In this document: positions 10,006-16,414 of the stretch, one piece after another | Layout of the letters: each line of letters opens with the position of its first letter | Numbering within the stretch: position 1 is the first letter of the stretch | From: a virus | Taxonomy: Duplodnaviria > Caudoviricetes | Length of the DNA stretch: 64,000 nt | Virus record (IMG/VR): IMGVR_UViG_3300012018_000002 | Location: 1-64,000 of that record | Strand: one strand, 5' to 3' | Translations under genes and position numbers: made by a program | Notes under the pieces: generated by a model | Told to the model about the DNA's origin: nothing | Databases searched by the model: none | Seen by the model: the letters and a program-made list of their open reading frames with translations, nothing else

Positions 10006-10498
10006 CTATTATACTATCATATTCATCTGCTAACTGTTCTTGTTGTATCCAATCTCTTAAAAATTTTGCTCTTTCTTCTGTTTTAGCTAACACACCATAT
10101 GTTTCTTTTGTAGCAGAAGTATTGAGATATTTATTCAAAAATTCTTGACTATACATTTTAGAATACTTAGAATTTCTAAAATTCCTATAAGTCTCTGTAT
10201 ATTCATCAGGAACTTGTGCTACTACCATATGATACCTATCATCTACTTCATAATCAAAAACAAAACACTGTTGTTTATTAAACCAATTTAATAATACATC
10301 AAAGTTTTTAGCCTTTGATTTATCAAATAATATGAATATAGAAAAAGGTGTATCTACTTGATTCACATCTCCTATAAACATATTAACTATTAATCCACTT
10401 GCCTTTTTCATAAAATCAGACATAGTAGATTGAAACTCAACACCATATCCAAAGTGTATACTTGGATATAAATATCTATATGTTTTTGTTTTACTCAT
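9962..10498 (-). CDS. Hypothetical phage protein
   Basis: 178-aa ORF in replication operon. Confidence 0.7.
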   Translation of the reverse strand: MSKTKTYRYLYPSIHFGYGVEFQSTMSDFMKKASGLIVNMFIGDVNQVDTPFSIFILFDKSKAKNFDVLLNWFNKQQCFVFDYEVDDRYHMVVAQVPDEYTETYRNFRNSKYSKMYSQEFLNKYLNTSATKETYGVLAKTEERAKFLRDWIQQEQLADEYDSIIDDRETFDRTTYDYK

Positions 10499-11199
10499 TT
10501 TCTCACCTCTGGTATTTTAAACCCTTCATAATCATCCAAAATCTTTAAACACATATAGTTCTTATAAAATTCCTGTATGCCTTTATATTCGCCAAAATGA
10601 TTTATATACTCCCATTTTACTATTAACCATAGAGGAATAGGAAATTTAAAATCTATTGGGTATTTTTCAAAAACATTTTCGGCAAATTTAGGTCCTTTCC
10701 CAGGAATTCCTTTTATATTATCAGTAGTATCTCCAGCTATCATTGATGTCCAGAAATACCTTTCAGCTTCTTCTTTTGTTGTTTCTTTCCACTCTTGTTT
10801 TTGTGGATTATAATGTCTACCTTCAAGATTTAACAAATCTTTATCATTAGACACTATAAATGAACCTTTTATCTTATTCTTACATATATTCACACAATCA
10901 TCTGCTTCTAAAGGTTCTATTAAGTTGAACTTATTGAGAACATATTCTTTAAGTTCACTAAAGTAAAGAGGTTTTTCACCTTTTCTATTACTTTTATATT
11001 CAGGATTAATTTCCTTACGAAAATTCTTACCTGTTAAAAATCCTATATAACCATCAGCTTCACTGTTAGCTAAAATATTTTCAAGATAACTTTCAAAATT
11101 ATCTTTCATTTGTGAAAAATCCTTAATATCCTCTCCAGCTTTATTGTGGCATGTTACATATAACATGTAATCTCCGTCAATTAGTGCTGTTGATTTCAT
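10495..11199 (-). CDS. 5'-3' exonuclease/flap endonuclease (T5/T7 type)
   Basis: LIDGD, NFRK.I..EYK.NR, EADD, DKDL, GDTTDNIKGIPGKGPK. Confidence 0.9.
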   Translation of the reverse strand: MKSTALIDGDYMLYVTCHNKAGEDIKDFSQMKDNFESYLENILANSEADGYIGFLTGKNFRKEINPEYKSNRKGEKPLYFSELKEYVLNKFNLIEPLEADDCVNICKNKIKGSFIVSNDKDLLNLEGRHYNPQKQEWKETTKEEAERYFWTSMIAGDTTDNIKGIPGKGPKFAENVFEKYPIDFKFPIPLWLIVKWEYINHFGEYKGIQEFYKNYMCLKILDDYEGFKIPEVRK

Positions 11200-11557
11200 T
11201 TGCTTCTAGTTTTTTCCATTTAAAATAGTCTTCTAAAGTCATTTCTATGAAGACTTTTATTTCTTTGTTTTGTTTATGTATTACTACAAACGGCTTATGT
11301 AATCTTTTTTCTACAGGTTCTAGCTTTTCCATAATTAAAGCTTTCATTTGTCTAATAATTGTTAAAGGATTTAATGAAGCCTTTACATTTTTAGCTTGTG
11401 TATTATCTGGTATTCCCCAGAAATCAAGTTTACAATCATCGTATAGTTTACTAGCTTGTCGAGAAGTCAGGGCATTTTTAAACCCTGCTTCTCGATACAA
11501 TCTAGCTAACTCTCTTTCAAAATTATGACCTTTTCTTCGATTTGTTAAACCATTCAT
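11177..11557 (-). CDS. Holliday junction resolvase-like PD-(D/E)xK nuclease
   Basis: NRRKGHNFERELA, D...D, QAK. Confidence 0.7.
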   Translation of the reverse strand: MNGLTNRRKGHNFERELARLYREAGFKNALTSRQASKLYDDCKLDFWGIPDNTQAKNVKASLNPLTIIRQMKALIMEKLEPVEKRLHKPFVVIHKQNKEIKVFIEMTLEDYFKWKKLEANEINSTN

Positions 11558-12252
11558 AATGTTTTGATAAAAGATTCAAATTTGTCTTTTATAAATAATT
11601 CTTTTTCTTCTTGACTATTAAATACAGGAAGTTGATTTACTTTAACTAAATCATAAAAATCCTTTTTTATTACTAATTTTAAATTTAAGTTTTTAGCTCT
11701 TCCCATGTGAGCTTTTCTTTCTGGTAAGTCTTTTGTCCAAAATTCTAATATTGAAATAGAAGGTTGCTGTCCTAATAATAATGTTGAATATAAATAAGGT
11801 ATATATTTCTTATGAATTACTAGAACACTTTTTATTGCTTTTTCTAAATCAGCATTACGCTCATTCATATTAATATTTGTAAAACCTGTATTATCGTTTC
11901 CAGTTAGATAGAGTAAAGAAAAAATAGAATAATTCAATAAACTTCCAGCTATATAGCTATCAACAAAATTAACTTGATAACCAAGACTATGTGGTTTCTC
12001 AAATAACTGAGAAAGTGCATTTTTTTGGTGATTTCTAACAATTCCAGGTAGAATATCGTCATAATGACTTGCTCCTATCAAAAAAGGTTTTAAATTATAT
12101 AATACATTAGACAATAATAAATAGTCAGAATCTTTAAATATAAGTTTTCTGGCAGCACCAGAAAGAAATAAACTATCACCACTAGCAAAAGAAGTGGTAG
12201 AGTTTCCCATGCGTCTAATTAAGTCATTGATATTACAAGTAAGCTGTTTCAT
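11554..12252 (-). CDS. Hypothetical protein directly downstream of E1-like gene
   Basis: 232-aa ORF overlapping the ThiF gene end. Confidence 0.65.
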   Translation of the reverse strand: MKQLTCNINDLIRRMGNSTTSFASGDSLFLSGAARKLIFKDSDYLLLSNVLYNLKPFLIGASHYDDILPGIVRNHQKNALSQLFEKPHSLGYQVNFVDSYIAGSLLNYSIFSLLYLTGNDNTGFTNINMNERNADLEKAIKSVLVIHKKYIPYLYSTLLLGQQPSISILEFWTKDLPERKAHMGRAKNLNLKLVIKKDFYDLVKVNQLPVFNSQEEKELFIKDKFESFIKTL

Positions 12253-12907
12253 ATTTCATTAAACTTATCTCCATAAAAATAGAAAAAGGTAATTCTCTTA
12301 TATCTATTCCTAGATTTTTGTTAGTTAAATAGTTTGTAAATAATGCAACCATGTTAGAGCTTATCATTGCCCCACAATGAGAAGTTGCTTTATACGAACA
12401 CATTAATTCAGCAACTTCTTTGTCATCAAATAATGTTTTTTCATATGCTTCAATTCTATCAGGTGTTACACAATAGACTTGAAAACTTTCTGCTAACATT
12501 CTGCCATCAATGAATAATTCCTTATTTGGTAAATTTTTCCATTTATCAAACAGTAATTTTCTGGCTTCCATGTTATCAAAACAAGAAAAAGATATTGGTG
12601 TTGCAAAATTATTTTCAGTAAAAAGTCCAGACAATTGAATTTTAGAAAAACCTGAAAACTCTCTAACTATTTTTAGAACAGTTTCATCTTTTCTTTGTCC
12701 AATAGAGTTTATGTCATATAATTGACCACCCATATTAGTTTCATCAATTGAATCATTTTCATAAATGAACATAGGAACTCCAATTCTACCTAAATAAAAT
12801 GCTAACCATGAACCTATTCCACCAACACCTCCTACTGTCACAGTAGGTAAAATATTTAATAACCATTTTGCACCACTAAATCTTACTCTTTTGTTATCAT
12901 TCTCCAT
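12233..12907 (-). CDS. ThiF/E1-like adenylyltransferase
   Basis: VGGVGGIGS nucleotide-binding loop, D.IDETN..Q, CFDNMEAR, FIDGRM, candidate catalytic Cys in LMCSYK. Confidence 0.88.
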   Translation of the reverse strand: MENDNKRVRFSGAKWLLNILPTVTVGGVGGIGSWLAFYLGRIGVPMFIYENDSIDETNMGGQLYDINSIGQRKDETVLKIVREFSGFSKIQLSGLFTENNFATPISFSCFDNMEARKLLFDKWKNLPNKELFIDGRMLAESFQVYCVTPDRIEAYEKTLFDDKEVAELMCSYKATSHCGAMISSNMVALFTNYLTNKNLGIDIRELPFSIFMEISLMKYETAYL

Positions 12908-14048
12908 ATGAAGCAGTTTGTTTTACTAAATAATGAGAAAGTCCTAATTTTATAGAAGACATAATATCTTCAGCATCCTCAAACTTATAAGAATTTAGTA
13001 TAGAAATTGCTCTTTCAGCATATTCATCCATTTCAAAAACACCTGGTTTTCTACCTTTAAATGCTTCACAAACAACTTTAAAATTAGTAGTTACTCTCTG
13101 TCTCAAAGAATATAAATAATTAGCTTTTGTAAACTTATCTTTATTTTCTTTATACTGAGAATTTACTCTTTTTATTACATTGTAAATGTCAGAAAACTCA
13201 TACATGTTTCCAGATATAGTTTTACATAAATGACTTACTGTAACAAAGTCTGTTTCACCTGTATTTTTTGAAAGTAGTTTATCAGTGCTTTTATGAATTT
13301 CATCAAAAAGAGAAGTTTCTTTAACTTTTTTACTAGCTCTGTTCTTCTTATCAATACTAAAGTTTTCAAAATATGAATCATTACCCATATAACCTTTTGT
13401 ATAAATGGGTGTCTTTTTCTTTTTCTCAACTTCTGCAAATCTTTCATTAAACCATTCTGGTAATTCAAATAATATATTACAATCATATACTAATAATACA
13501 CCAGGTAATTCTGCTGTTCTTTCATAATCTCCAGAGCTTCCTTTGAATTTCATAACTCGTTCTATAGGAGGAGAATAACATGCTATTTTAGCAATATAAT
13601 TACAACTAAAATTAACAATTAAACTTAAATAAAAATTATGATGAGGTGAATTTGTATGAAGTTCTCCAGTGTCTGTTCCTGAAAAGAAAGTATCCATTGA
13701 ATGATGAGTGTGAATAGTCCCTATTTTATATTTTCTAACACCATTCTCAACAATAGGTAATCTAGTGTGCATATCTACGTATGCTTCATCATAATCAAAT
13801 TCAGTATATGCAGAACTACCTATATCCATTGGATATATATAATCTGCTTGTAAAACTAAATCTTTTGGATTCTCAATATCCCCGCTTATAATTTTATATA
13901 AGAGTATACCACTCCATTCGTCTTTCTTAACTCTGTTGTGTAAGAAGTTTACTTGATTCATTAGTTCTTGTGATAGAATTAATGAAGGTTTGTCTTTTTG
14001 TAATAGTGCAGTATGCACATGATTACTTGTGTTATTGTCAAGACTCAT
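12897..14048 (-). CDS. JAB/MPN+ (JAMM) metalloprotease with C-terminal extension
   Basis: EWSG plus HTHHSMDTFFSGTD (HxH-x7-S-x2-D). Confidence 0.85.
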   Translation of the reverse strand: MSLDNNTSNHVHTALLQKDKPSLILSQELMNQVNFLHNRVKKDEWSGILLYKIISGDIENPKDLVLQADYIYPMDIGSSAYTEFDYDEAYVDMHTRLPIVENGVRKYKIGTIHTHHSMDTFFSGTDTGELHTNSPHHNFYLSLIVNFSCNYIAKIACYSPPIERVMKFKGSSGDYERTAELPGVLLVYDCNILFELPEWFNERFAEVEKKKKTPIYTKGYMGNDSYFENFSIDKKNRASKKVKETSLFDEIHKSTDKLLSKNTGETDFVTVSHLCKTISGNMYEFSDIYNVIKRVNSQYKENKDKFTKANYLYSLRQRVTTNFKVVCEAFKGRKPGVFEMDEYAERAISILNSYKFEDAEDIMSSIKLGLSHYLVKQTASYGE

Positions 14049-14991
14049 AATATATATAACGTGTAAATTTATGTGATATTTCTCTAATTGCCTGTTCTAT
14101 TAAATGTAAAGGAACTTTTTTTTCTGCAATTGATTCTGTATTTACAGAAGATAACAATTCTACTCTTTTAGTTTGTTCTTTAAATTCAAAATGAGGAATT
14201 GTTTTATTTGTTGTATTACTGTTTATTATCTCTTCTCCTTTTGAATTTATATTTACTATAAACCTACTAAACGCTGGTAAACTAGATATTGCTTTTCTTA
14301 TACTTCCTACGTCAATTATAAACATGTTATCATAATTTTGAAGAATTAATAAACTTTTAGAATTTAATTTCATATAATCTGTTAATTCTCTTGTAAATAA
14401 CTGTATTTCTGCACTACTAAATACTCTTTGTTGAGCATTTGAACCTATTGATGATATTCTTTGATATGGTCCACCTTCAATAGATTCACATTTTAAATAA
14501 GAAAAGAAACCAACAACAACTTTTTCAAATAAAACAAATAATGTTTTATCAAAATTATCAAAATCGTATAACGTAAATTTACTTATTAATTCAGAAAATG
14601 TGCCTGAACCATAACAAAAATGACCTCCTTGTGATGATAAATGAGAAAAATAGTAATCAGAATTTAATTCATCATACGTCATTTTTCCTCTTTGACCTGA
14701 AATATAACCAAAATAAATTTTATCATTAGCAACTTTTAATCTTATTGAAACAATTGTATCATAAATAGTATGAGTAGCATTTTTAGAATCTGATTCAACT
14801 GTTAATACAGGAAAGAGAAATTGAACCGTAATATGATTTTGATTATAATATATATAATAATCTTCTTCATTAAACCAAGAACTAACTACTTTTTTAAAGC
14901 CTTCAGCTATTTCACTTAGTTTTTCCAAAACTGTTTTATTTTTAACTTCAGAAGACACATCAGTAGTTGTTATTTGAACAATATCACTCAT
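14038..14991 (-). CDS. Putative prokaryotic E2-like conjugating enzyme
   Basis: YYFSHL.....FCYG (His...Cys spacing of E2 active sites); lies between Ubl and JAB genes. Confidence 0.5.
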   Translation of the reverse strand: MSDIVQITTTDVSSEVKNKTVLEKLSEIAEGFKKVVSSWFNEEDYYIYYNQNHITVQFLFPVLTVESDSKNATHTIYDTIVSIRLKVANDKIYFGYISGQRGKMTYDELNSDYYFSHLSSQGGHFCYGSGTFSELISKFTLYDFDNFDKTLFVLFEKVVVGFFSYLKCESIEGGPYQRISSIGSNAQQRVFSSAEIQLFTRELTDYMKLNSKSLLILQNYDNMFIIDVGSIRKAISSLPAFSRFIVNINSKGEEIINSNTTNKTIPHFEFKEQTKRVELLSSVNTESIAEKKVPLHLIEQAIREISHKFTRYIYYES

Positions 14992-15271
14992 ACATTATTT
15001 GTTTAGCTTCGTTTAATAAATCTAATTTATTCTTTTCAATTTGTCTCTGCTTTTCTATAATTTGTTTCTTTTTTTCTTCTTCTTCTTTTATGCGTAATAA
15101 TTGCTCTTCTTGTTCTTTTTGTATTTTTTTAATTCTTTCTTCATCTCTTCTTCTTTTTTCCTCTAGTTCCATCTGAAGAGCAGATTCATGAAGAGCTATA
15201 CGTTCCCATATAGCTCTCATGTTATCCTCAGTCCTCTTATTTATATCTGTAAAAACGAGGAATCTTTCCAT
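14984..15271 (-). CDS. Charged coiled-coil protein
   Basis: E/K/Q/R-rich helix. Confidence 0.6.
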   Translation of the reverse strand: MERFLVFTDINKRTEDNMRAIWERIALHESALQMELEEKRRRDEERIKKIQKEQEEQLLRIKEEEEKKKQIIEKQRQIEKNKLDLLNEAKQIMYE

Positions 15272-15275
15272 ATTT

Positions 15276-15743
15276 TTATTTCATTAATTCTCTAGCTTCT
15301 CTTAATAATCTATCTTTGTCTGGAGATGCGCTTACTAAGCCACTAGAAGTTATAGGAAAACCTTTTTCTTCAGCAACTCCTGCTTGAGTTACATTAACTG
15401 AAGAACCATTTTTCAATCTTTTCATAAAACGAACAAGATGTGTAGTATTATTATTATCTTCTAATATTTCAATGATTTCTTCAATATCAGAAATATCTTC
15501 ACTAGAAAAACCTGATTTTACTTTAGATGGAGATAAATACAAAGTAAAATCTCCTTGTGGTAAAATAGCTTGTTCATTTTCTAAAGTATTTCTATTTTCT
15601 TTAATCATTGCTCTCATTCCTTTAGCTCCGCCTAATTTATCATGGCGGGATAATTCACCCCAAGTTTCTGCACTTGACTCTATTTCAAAAACGTCATCTG
15701 TGCTAGTAGAAACAACTGTAATTTTTCTCATTGTTATAACCAA
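15276..15743 (-). CDS. Putative ubiquitin-like (beta-grasp) precursor with C-terminal extension
   Basis: ~74-aa N-terminal domain with beta-beta-alpha-beta pattern ending FTLYLSPSKVKSG, followed by an acidic tail; upstream of E2/JAB/E1. Confidence 0.55.
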   Translation of the reverse strand: MVITMRKITVVSTSTDDVFEIESSAETWGELSRHDKLGGAKGMRAMIKENRNTLENEQAILPQGDFTLYLSPSKVKSGFSSEDISDIEEIIEILEDNNNTTHLVRFMKRLKNGSSVNVTQAGVAEEKGFPITSSGLVSASPDKDRLLREARELMK

Positions 15744-16414
15744 TTAATTTTGTGTCCATATAAACTATGAACAATGTTATCAATTTTGTTGAATATTTTA
15801 CTTCCTCTAAATATTCTTTCGTTTCTATAAGTATCTGCTGCTGGATGAGCAGCTTTTAAAATATAGTTTGTATTTTGCCTTATAAATGGTTCAAAAGATT
15901 GAGCCACTTTACCTAAAAGAACATATACAATAGCTGTATTTTTAATACTTAATTCTCTGAGCAATCCTTCAATAAAGTATTTCCATACTTTTTGATGACT
16001 CCCAGGCAAATTTAATTCTACTGATAATGCAGAATTTAATAATAAAACTCCTTGGTTTGCCCAATGCTCTAAGCTTTGTTTATCAAGGAAAAGCCATTCA
16101 TTATATTCTTCAATATTTTCTGAAAGCTCTTCCAAGATAATCTGCAGAGATGCAGGTGTTTTATCACCTACATATCCAAAAGCCAATCCTGTAGCAACAT
16201 TTTGTTGAGGATATGGGTCTTGACCCAATATAACAACTTTTAAATCATCGTAAGGACAAGCCTTAAATGCTTTAAAAAGATTTGCTATATTAGGTTCAAA
16301 ACCCTTAGAGCTTACAATAGTTGATAAAATAGTTTCAAACCTACTATCTTCAATTAATGGAGTTAGTATTGGAATCCATTTTTCATCTAGCTGCTTTTTA
16401 AAATGCTCTATCAT
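15734..16414 (-). CDS. ung: Uracil-DNA glycosylase family 1
   Basis: VVILGQDPY, GLAF, SL, GVLLLNSAL, GSH, HPA. Confidence 0.93.
   Translation of the reverse strand: MIEHFKKQLDEKWIPILTPLIEDSRFETILSTIVSSKGFEPNIANLFKAFKACPYDDLKVVILGQDPYPQQNVATGLAFGYVGDKTPASLQIILEELSENIEEYNEWLFLDKQSLEHWANQGVLLLNSALSVELNLPGSHQKVWKYFIEGLLRELSIKNTAIVYVLLGKVAQSFEPFIRQNTNYILKAAHPAADTYRNERIFRGSKIFNKIDNIVHSLYGHKINWL

Follow-up and report, generated by a model that had tools for sequence, protein, structure and literature searches.

A 64,000-nucleotide stretch of viral DNA (positions 1 to 64,000 of the IMG/VR record IMGVR_UViG_3300012018_000002), which we call the window, comes from a wastewater crAss-like phage. It carries a cassette of six tightly packed minus-strand genes (g1-g6), which overlap by 4-20 nt or are separated by gaps of a few nt. 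Four of these genes encode a precursor of a ubiquitin-like protein (Ubl; g1), a predicted E2-like protein of the UBC fold (g3), a putative JAB/JAMM metallopeptidase (g4), and a minimal E1-like adenylating enzyme of the ThiF family (g5). We predict that the cassette is, on balance, a phage-run minimal pathway of Ubl activation and conjugation. The folds or families of the four proteins are recognizable, their catalytic-type residues are conserved, and their genes are strictly co-inherited. An earlier note, made by reading the window without database searches, had proposed such a cassette at 12233-15743. The co-oriented, overlapping or abutting genes that it described are all present on the minus strand, and so are the motifs that it quoted, KVKSG in g1, FSHL-x5-FCYG in g3, HTHH..S..D in g4, and LMCSYK in g5. 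These motifs are far from chance features. Among 65-74 distinct homologues per gene, Gly78 of g1, His117 and Cys126 of g3, and Cys170 of g5 are all 100% conserved.

Conserved gene order and phage distribution

A single E1 protein used as the query for related loci found no relatives, and an alignment of three E1 sequences was required. The scan of IMG/VR with this alignment gave 447 confirmed relatives, of which 80 loci were examined. Iterated hidden Markov model (HMM) searches were run over all open reading frames (ORFs) of 82 loci, comprising the 80 IMG/VR loci, Flavobacterium phage FpV4, and cr106_1. The g1 family was present at 76 of these loci, g3 at 79, g4 at 81, and g5 at 82, and where the genes occur they always lie on one strand in the order g1-g3-g4-g5. 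The full order was found in 74 of the 80 IMG/VR loci, with E1 identities of 38-65%, and also in FpV4 and cr106_1. Four of the six loci without the full order end at a contig boundary, and g3 is retained in every complete cassette. The gene order is thus conserved in related phages, as the earlier note had asked to see. It is kept in crAss001 as well, where the proteins Gp79, Gp78, Gp77, and Gp76 matched the HMMs of g1, g3, g4, and g5, respectively (E 1e-35, 3e-53, 4e-81, and 5e-82).

Relatives of the E1 with 34-44% identity are found in 29 phage records of Flavobacterium psychrophilum (the FpV4 group) and in about 45 records of Crassvirales, among them the cultured Bacteroides phages crAss001 and DAC15 and isolates of Kehishuvirus and Kolpuevirus. 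Among 185,579 prokaryote species, each represented by one genome, E1 relatives were found at 22 loci only. Because these loci are few and all lie on contigs of metagenome-assembled genomes (MAGs), and because 11 of the 22 are evidently crAss-like phage contigs with part or the whole of the cassette binned into unrelated taxa, the cassette is essentially phage-restricted. The crAss-like contigs (loci L085-L095) sit in MAGs labelled Thermotogaceae, Promethearchaeia, Nitrososphaerota, Bacilli, Clostridium, and others. These placements are probably binning artefacts and could mislead host assignment.

An E1 of the same subfamily is also encoded by the 228-kb Xanthomonas phage PhiXhv-12 (locus L084, 4905-5588; HMM E 1e-34), where it lies beside topoisomerase genes, and by the jumbo Erwinia phage Ep032. 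No neighbor at these two jumbo-phage loci was matched by the g1, g3, or g4 HMMs. In PhiXhv-12, an 892-residue gene is located immediately upstream of the E1 gene.

Closely related strains were compared through a 28.6-kb contig from another wastewater run, which spans the cassette. Over 4.19 kb, it shows 27 substitutions and no insertions or deletions. None of the substitutions falls in g1 or g5, three are in g4 (all synonymous), and eighteen are in g3.

The ubiquitin-like precursor

The g1 gene (15276-15743, minus strand) encodes 155 residues counted from TTG 15743, where the ORF opens. Its probable start is ATG 15731, the position at which homologues begin. A beta-grasp core (approximately 15510-15731) leads to the codon of the invariant Gly (15510-15512), which is Gly78 counted from the TTG and Gly74 counted from the ATG. 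The remaining 77 residues form an acidic, helical tail (15279-15509). The AlphaFold2 model, built from the family alignment, has a predicted local distance difference test (pLDDT) value of about 94 over residues 1-70 and the beta-beta-alpha-beta-beta order, and the Gly is placed in an exposed segment after the beta-grasp core. In a Foldseek search against the PDB, the model matched ubiquitin, NEDD8, ISG15, SUMO, UBX, and MoaD/TtuB with probabilities of 0.97-1.0. The best template modeling score was 0.71, and the root-mean-square deviation (rmsd) was 2.4-3 Å over about 77 columns. The model and Foldseek therefore both assign the ubiquitin-type fold that had been anticipated for 15276-15743, and g1 has the beta-grasp domain of about 75 residues expected of a Ubl modifier. 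In sequence searches, g1 gave chance-level rows at most against Pfam, NCBIfam, and PADLOC, and a PHROGs match of unknown function.

The Gly is the sole invariant column in alignments of 54-65 sequences and lies within the motif K-x-K-S/A-G. The SG motif singled out by the earlier note is conserved in this form, with the Gly invariant in 65 sequences and preceded by Ser or Ala. It would correspond to the conserved C-terminal Gly of Ubl modifiers. The tails past the Gly are 1-5 residues long in 19 of the 65 sequences and 21-217 residues long in the remainder. The shortest homologues, with 75-83 residues, end 1-5 residues beyond K-x-K-S/A-G.

Some of the longer tails contain recognizable regions. 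The Pfam SAP domain, a DNA-tethering domain, was found in the tail of two of the 54 g1 members scanned, and SAP-like tail sequences were seen by eye at three loci (L004, 3608-4342; L012, 4127-4804; L015, 3719-4375). Other g1 precursors share a recurrent helical tail region containing F-G-N-Y. Since some relatives have long tails with a SAP domain or an F-G-N-Y region, the cleaved-off part of g1 may itself be functional.

The JAB/JAMM peptidase and the E1-like enzyme

The g4 gene (12897-14048, minus strand) encodes 383 residues. Its N-terminal half contains Glu44 and H113-x-H115-x7-S123-x2-D126, with the codons of the H..D segment at about 13671-13712. Glu44 is conserved at 91% and His113, His115, Ser123, and Asp126 at 93-100%, the latter four being invariant in the family alignment. 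The C-terminal half is helical and poorly conserved. The Pfam family Prok-JAB was matched with E <0.01 by 32 of 51 g4 family members (best E 2.5e-5), and the match of the window's own g4 is weak (E 0.056). A g4 profile searched against PDB sequences found no JAMM chain and gave weak helical-repeat rows for the C-terminal half. Judged from its conserved motif and the Prok-JAB matches within its family, g4 is a predicted peptidase of the JAB/JAMM (MPN+) type, in agreement with the earlier assignment.

The g5 gene (12233-12907, minus strand) encodes 224 residues, and its family is clearer. It matches Pfam ThiF with E 1.2e-11 (44.7 bits against a cut-off of 28.1) and phrog_15670 with E 6e-51. The g5 profile searched against PDB sequences ranked UBA5 first (E 2.9e-11), followed by MccB, PaaA, TcdA, and ThiF, and further matches were the E1 enzymes of NEDD8, SUMO, and ubiquitin, MoeB, and Cap2 (E 2.5e-6). 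Residues of the ThiF-type Rossmann fold and adenylation site are invariant or nearly so, namely G27-x-G29-x-x-G32, R41, D52, N58, Q62, K73, D111, R116, and D134. The protein consists of a single ThiF domain, without a rhodanese domain, zinc-binding Cys pairs, or a second adenylation domain. Cys170 (codon 12398-12400), the candidate Cys of the earlier note, is 100% conserved in a C-S-x-K-x-T motif. The assignment of g5 as a ThiF/E1 protein with a candidate Cys is thus borne out by the Pfam match and the invariance of Cys170.

The alignments of g5 to solved E1 enzymes end near residue 119, short of Cys170, and the C-terminal 105 residues gave nothing useful against PDB sequences. Cys170 is a candidate for the catalytic Cys of the crossover loop and may correspond in position to ThiF Cys184 and UBA5 Cys250, a correspondence for which the sequence search gave no confirmation. 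Public phage records label the E1 gene 'thiamine biosynthesis protein' in nearly all relatives, apparently a mis-annotation. The E1 of Steigviridae-type crAss phages has an extra N-terminal region of approximately 80-180 residues, which is absent here and in FpV4. Examples of the extended form are crAss001 Gp76 (L083, 5557-6708), L002 (5497-6708), and the E1 proteins of L071-L081.

The E2-like protein

The g3 gene (14038-14991, minus strand) encodes 317 residues, divided into a core (residues ~14-190; 14422-14952) and a variable C-terminal domain (residues 191-317; 14041-14421). In alignments of 58-70 sequences, H117 (codon 14641-14643), C126 (codon 14614-14616), G128, E169, S170, G173, and P175 are invariant. 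The retention of the His, Cys, and Gly and of the E-S-x-x-G-x-P motif amid an overall identity of 13-26% argues for catalysis. The AlphaFold2 model (pLDDT 86.7) contains a helix at residues 14-37, a four-strand meander at 45-105, the H..C loop, and helices at 131-139 and 149-166, with a separate domain at residues 190-317. As modeled, the order of helix, four-strand meander, and C-terminal helices is that of the UBC fold. His117 and Cys126 lie between strand 4 (91-105) and the helix at 131-139, which is the location of the E2 active site, and the His is 9 residues upstream of the Cys, as in classical E2 enzymes. The loop therefore has an invariant His before an invariant Cys, like the HPN-type loop of E2 enzymes. 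The earlier note had asked for a UBC fold with a conserved Cys in the active-site loop of 14038-14991, and the model and the invariance of Cys126 agree with it.

The g3 model was compared with 48,161 chains by VIA-align. FTS was ranked first (Z 7.0, rmsd 4.1, 147 aligned) and the E2 enzyme 1yrv third (Z 6.5, rmsd 4.2, 134 aligned). E2, UEV, and RWD chains, the Cap2 E2 domain, and BubB make up about half of the best 50 rows at Z 4.8-7.0, a range for which the tool warns that Z <8 may reflect a mere common arrangement, and actin-capping, THO, and Mediator chains are interleaved with the E2 rows. In the ESM Atlas, residues 1-190 of g3 adjoin viral clusters (score 0.93) in which 14-33% of the members carry Prok-E2_D, and the structural neighbors include a bacterial UQ_con cluster and an RWD cluster. 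We also predicted the complex of g3 (residues 1-190) with g1 (residues 1-74). The score was 0.35, against 0.13 for the best control, and lends weak support to an interaction. In the benchmark, 58 of 80 solved complexes and 2 of 110 mismatched pairs attained this mark, and among scores of 0.60 or under it was attained by only 7 of those 80 solved complexes and by both mismatches. The runs showed at least 73% contact agreement and a partner pLDDT of at least 79.

A diverged cassette provides a sequence link between g3 and known E2 families. The locus L099 (QMTU01000001.1, 3553-7663), on a contig in a Thermoplasmata MAG, encodes an E1 with 29% identity to g5. This E1 is preceded by a Prok-JAB protein, a 76-residue protein with the C-terminal sequence T-P-T-K-V-Q-G-A, and two E2-like proteins, which carry H-P-H-V-x5-6-C-x-G and multi-CxxC zinc-finger C-termini. 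The L099 cassette is followed by genes for a nucleotidyltransferase and a trypsin-like protease. One of the two E2-like proteins matches Pfam UQ_con over the active-site region (E 0.0038), and hhalign aligns His117 and Cys126 of g3 to the HPH..C motif of both proteins (P 0.004 and 0.0016). A phmmer search with the E2-like domain of L099 found 1466 representatives at E <= 1e-3 in a library of 1.84 billion proteins. In this E2-plus-zinc-finger family (A7), the H-P-H, Cys, and Gly are invariant in the 76 members examined, three of which match UQ_con at E <0.01 (best 1.3e-4).

When the g3 and A7 alignments were both trimmed to the domain and compared, hhalign gave a probability of 74% (P 2.7e-5) over 60 columns, which cover the His, the Cys, the following helix, and a common P-Y motif and overlap the UQ_con active-site region. 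In global mode, P was 2.8e-4 over 121 columns, and with untrimmed alignments of g3 and the HPH..C proteins the probability was 8-16%. The g3 HMM does not detect the A7 family in HMMER, and it is profile-profile comparison alone that links the two. By hhalign, the g4 family was likewise related to the L099 JAB protein (P 1.1e-4), and the comparison of the g1 family with the L099 Ubl was not significant (P 0.14). Taking the sequence and model evidence together, we consider it likely that g3 belongs to the E2 superfamily as a catalytic member.

Among the 18 substitutions in g3 between the near-identical strains, 16 fall in residues 181-300 and cause 10 amino-acid changes. The variable segment spans about 0.4 kb (window 14041-14451, g3 residues 181-317), and the near-identical strains were found in runs from wastewater, sludge, and wetland. 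Most of the changes recur in other runs, and one run has extra variants in the same segment. Since 16 of the 27 substitutions in the compared DNA lie there, the C-terminal domain is a local hot spot of protein change. The hot spot may have arisen by recombination or selection and fits a recognition role, as seen in few haplotypes. In VIA-align, this domain gave weak winged-helix-like matches to TopoVI-A (Z 5.3 over 60 residues) and ScpB (Z 4.7 over 54 residues).

Proposed pathway and alternative explanations

From the families and conserved residues, we infer the following chemistry, targets, and purpose. The cassette would be transcribed together with the replication genes. The g4 JAMM peptidase would cut the g1 precursor after the invariant Gly, removing a tail of 1 to more than 200 residues, and g5 would adenylate the exposed Gly, possibly forming a thioester on Cys170. 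The Ubl would then be transferred to Cys126 of g3 and attached to phage or host proteins, for which the fast-changing C-terminal domain of g3 may select the target. The g4 peptidase may also reverse the tagging. The position in the replication block, the SAP tails, and the winged-helix-like matches of g3 together hint, speculatively, at DNA-associated targets.

Several points weigh against this pathway. The Ubl terminus is Ser/Ala-Gly rather than Gly-Gly. The literature searched, consisting of open rather than subscription-only sources, contained no biochemistry or proteomics that shows cleavage, thioesters, or conjugates, and no E3 or target was identifiable. Most of the doubt concerns g3, which is the weakest link of the cassette reading. 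Its Z values are only 5-7. In Foldseek against the PDB, it gave no row with E <= 0.001, the best E being 0.1, and the top rows (E 0.1-0.3) include FTS, Ube2K, and two parasite E2 enzymes. Neither g3 in Pfam, NCBIfam, and PADLOC nor any of 58 family members matched a curated E2 model (UQ_con, Prok-E2_A to E), so that the link to E2 enzymes runs through A7 and the Atlas neighbors. The PHROGs match of g3 is to a family of unknown function only, and its family profile gave chance rows only against PDB sequences.

These weaknesses of g3 would suit an activation and processing module without E2 transfer. In such a module, g3 would be a non-catalytic UBC/RWD/UEV look-alike or an unrelated Cys/His enzyme, and the activated Ubl would be used otherwise, for example in direct E1-mediated transfer. 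The lack of a curated E2 match, the low Z values with actin-capping, THO, and Mediator chains among the E2 rows, and the weak prediction of the g3-g1 complex all favor it. However, His117, Cys126, Gly128, and E-S-x-x-G-x-P are invariant despite the low identity of the family, and the His/Cys position between strand 4 and helix 2 is that of the E2 active site. The profile link to the HPH..C family covers the UQ_con active-site region, and g3 is never missing from complete cassettes. We regard a module of this kind as unlikely.

Counter-defense by interference appears less probable still. Here the JAB protein would act like Cap3 and remove Ubl or cGAS-type conjugates of the host, and the Ubl, E2-like, and E1 proteins would serve as decoys or competitors. 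Bacterial Bil and the type II cyclic oligonucleotide-based antiphage signaling system (CBASS) use E1/E2/JAB/Ubl chemistry against phages (PMC11601596), and a 2026 preprint (10.64898/2026.03.05.709809) points to a phage UBA5-like family that may be homologous to defense proteins. The sharp differences in the g3 C-terminal domain among near-identical strains also resemble an arms race. A decoy, however, would not require the adenylation, JAMM, and Cys/His sites that are kept over deep divergence. The PADLOC matches are weak and confined to the nucleotide-binding part of g5, and the cassette lies invariably in the replication block, not in variable anti-defense islands.

The least probable explanation is that the cassette is a sulfur-carrier pathway (ThiS/MoaD or TtuB type), in which the E1 would thiocarboxylate the Ubl to provide sulfur for a cofactor or for a tRNA or DNA modification made in infected cells. 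In its favor, the best NCBIfam matches of g5 are ThiF models (E ~1e-11), public records carry the thiamine name, and bacteria are known to trim sulfur carriers with JAB proteins (Iyer et al. 2006; PMC1779556). Against it, the NCBIfam ThiF score is 45 bits against family cut-offs of 152-159 bits, the conserved neighborhood has no rhodanese, cysteine desulfurase, ThiG/ThiH, MoaE, or thiolating enzyme, an E2-like protein with an invariant Cys would not be needed, and the g5 profile ranks UBA5 above ThiF and MoeB.

Relationship to known systems

The proposed conjugation cassette is nearest to Bil in gene content and nearest to Bub in E1 size and precursor processing, and it is a member of neither. 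It lies outside the Bil, Bub, type II CBASS, and PRTRC families, and neither g1 nor g3 matched any defense-system model of PADLOC. In Bil (BilA-BilB-BilC-BilD; PMC11601596), too, the Ubl, the E2 with its catalytic Cys, the JAB/JAMM protein, and the E1 are encoded by four individual genes, no E3 is recognizable, and the Ubl requires an exposed C-terminal Gly. However, the Bil E1 has inactive and active adenylation domains and a separate Cys domain (PMC11601596), whereas g5 is a single 224-residue ThiF domain. In addition, Bil is a bacterial anti-phage defense, whereas the cassette is carried by phages within their replication genes.

Type I Bub (6E.1/DUF6527; BubAB-BubCD-BubE; PMC11601596) resembles the cassette in its minimal homodimer-type, UBA5-like E1 and in the JAB protein that frees the Ubl from a C-terminal extension, a step that is proposed for the cassette. 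The BubB chain 9eav_D matches the g3 model with Z 4.8 and rmsd 3.6 over 107 aligned residues. The E1 and E2 of Bub have no catalytic Cys and use Ser/oxyester chemistry, whereas the Cys residues of g3 and g5 are both invariant. In Bub, moreover, the Ubl is fused to the E2 and the JAB protein to the E1, and the DUF6527 serine protease BubE is obligatory, whereas the cassette genes are separate. The cassette has no DUF6527, because its proteins in the window match only Pfam ThiF and, weakly, Prok-JAB.

The type 6d operon (Iyer, Burroughs, Aravind 2006; PMC1779556) and the PRTRC cassettes of mobile elements share several features with the phage cassette. Their Ubl is small, stands alone, and has a conserved C-terminal Gly, their E2-like protein has a conserved Cys, and their JAB protein has an extra N-terminal region. 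They also have a rhodanese-less E1 and an extra uncharacterized protein, and they occur on mobile DNA. In the type 6d E2, the His is downstream of the Cys (PMC1779556), whereas in g3 it is 9 residues upstream. The match of g5 to PRTRC_ThiF is weak (E 1.7e-6, 27.6 bits against a cut-off of 144.75). The PRTRC models matched none of g1, g3, and g4, and there was no ParB gene among the neighbors checked.

Type II CBASS also uses E1/E2/JAB chemistry in a phage-bacterium context, with Cap2 as an E2-E1 fusion and Cap3 as the JAB protein. The E2 domain of Cap2 (7to3_A, residues 7-154) matches the g3 model with Z 5.5 and rmsd 3.9 over 120 aligned residues. CBASS lacks a free Ubl and conjugates the C-terminus of the cyclase instead. 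It further relies on an E2-E1 fusion and requires a CD-NTase and an effector, features that are all absent from the cassette.

The sole phage-borne pairing of a Ubl and a JAB protein described in the searched literature is that of TAPI and TAPK (PMC1779556). In phages lambda and T1, TAPI (Ubl) is a Gly-ended beta-grasp protein with a C-terminal extension, like g1, and TAPK is the JAB protein (Iyer et al. 2006). This pair belongs to the tail module, is accompanied by no E1 or E2, and is unrelated in sequence, whereas the cassette is complete and lies in the replication module. The same literature describes no E1/E2/JAB/Ubl cassette for crAss-like or Flavobacterium phages. The nearest mention is one sentence in the 2026 preprint (10.64898/2026.03.05.709809) on a phage family with a UBA5-like fold.

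Accessory genes and genomic context

The remaining two cassette genes are less conserved. The g2 gene (14984-15271, minus strand) encodes a charged coiled-coil protein of 95 residues, which matches no family in Pfam, NCBIfam, or PHROGs. The closest relative (L003) has the sole counterpart, an ORF that is also 95 residues long, occupies the corresponding place, and is weakly similar (phmmer E 0.39). Most relatives have no separate g2 gene, and their g3 has N-terminal extensions of up to about 260 residues. The g2 protein may be a lineage-specific accessory or a remnant of such g3 extensions. The idea that it is a split-off part of g1 or g3 had no sequence support.

The g6 gene (11554-12252, minus strand) overlaps the end of the E1 gene and encodes an accessory protein of 232 residues. 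Homologues lie directly downstream of the E1 in 46 of the 80 loci. Their alignment has a mean identity of 15%, with the start Met as the only invariant residue. The g6 protein matched no family in Pfam, NCBIfam, PHROGs, or PADLOC and gave no usable ESM Atlas match. The suggestion in the earlier note that this ORF is an E3 or substrate adaptor thus found no support.

The cassette is flanked on one side by the gene of a uracil-DNA glycosylase (UDG; 15734-16414) and on the other by genes of a resolvase-like protein (11177-11557) and a FEN-type 5'-3' exonuclease (10495-11199). The neighbors of replication type also include a Toprim primase, a PolB-type 3'-5' exonuclease, an HNH endonuclease, and a calcineurin-like phosphoesterase. 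This setting corresponds to the replication module named in the earlier note. Its remark that no thiamine, molybdenum cofactor, or sulfur-relay genes are nearby also holds, as no such genes, rhodanese genes included, were seen between 8.8 and 19.4 kb of the window.

The G+C content is about 28% across the whole region. Metagenomes of wastewater, activated sludge, wetland, and soil, obtained in several studies, contain near-identical DNA. No RNA data set was listed as containing the stretch, and the sole run labelled 'transcriptomic' with a matching sequence is probably DNA.

Implications for crAss-like phages

Work on prokaryotic Ubl conjugation has until now dealt with its use by bacteria as a weapon against phages, in Bil, Bub, and type II CBASS. 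Here, the same chemistry would belong to a core module that a very large phage lineage conserves among its replication genes. This lineage includes the cultured models crAss001 and DAC15 of Bacteroides and FpV4 of Flavobacterium psychrophilum. Reading the genes as a conjugation cassette corrects the widespread 'thiamine biosynthesis protein' mis-annotation of the E1.

If the cassette is active, it would represent virus-run protein tagging in bacteria, with an unusually small E1 and an E2 family that is absent from Pfam. It would also give crAss-like phages, whose genes are mostly unnamed, a directly testable mechanism. A broader proposal, which we put forward tentatively, is that crAss-like phages universally run a complete, active, E3-less pathway of E1, E2, deubiquitinase-type peptidase, and Ubl, which covalently tags replisome, DNA-associated, or host-defense proteins in infected cells, with the fast-evolving C-terminal domain of g3 as the selector of substrates. 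If true, such a pathway would extend from the viruses that are most abundant in the human gut to environmental relatives that infect Bacteroidota.

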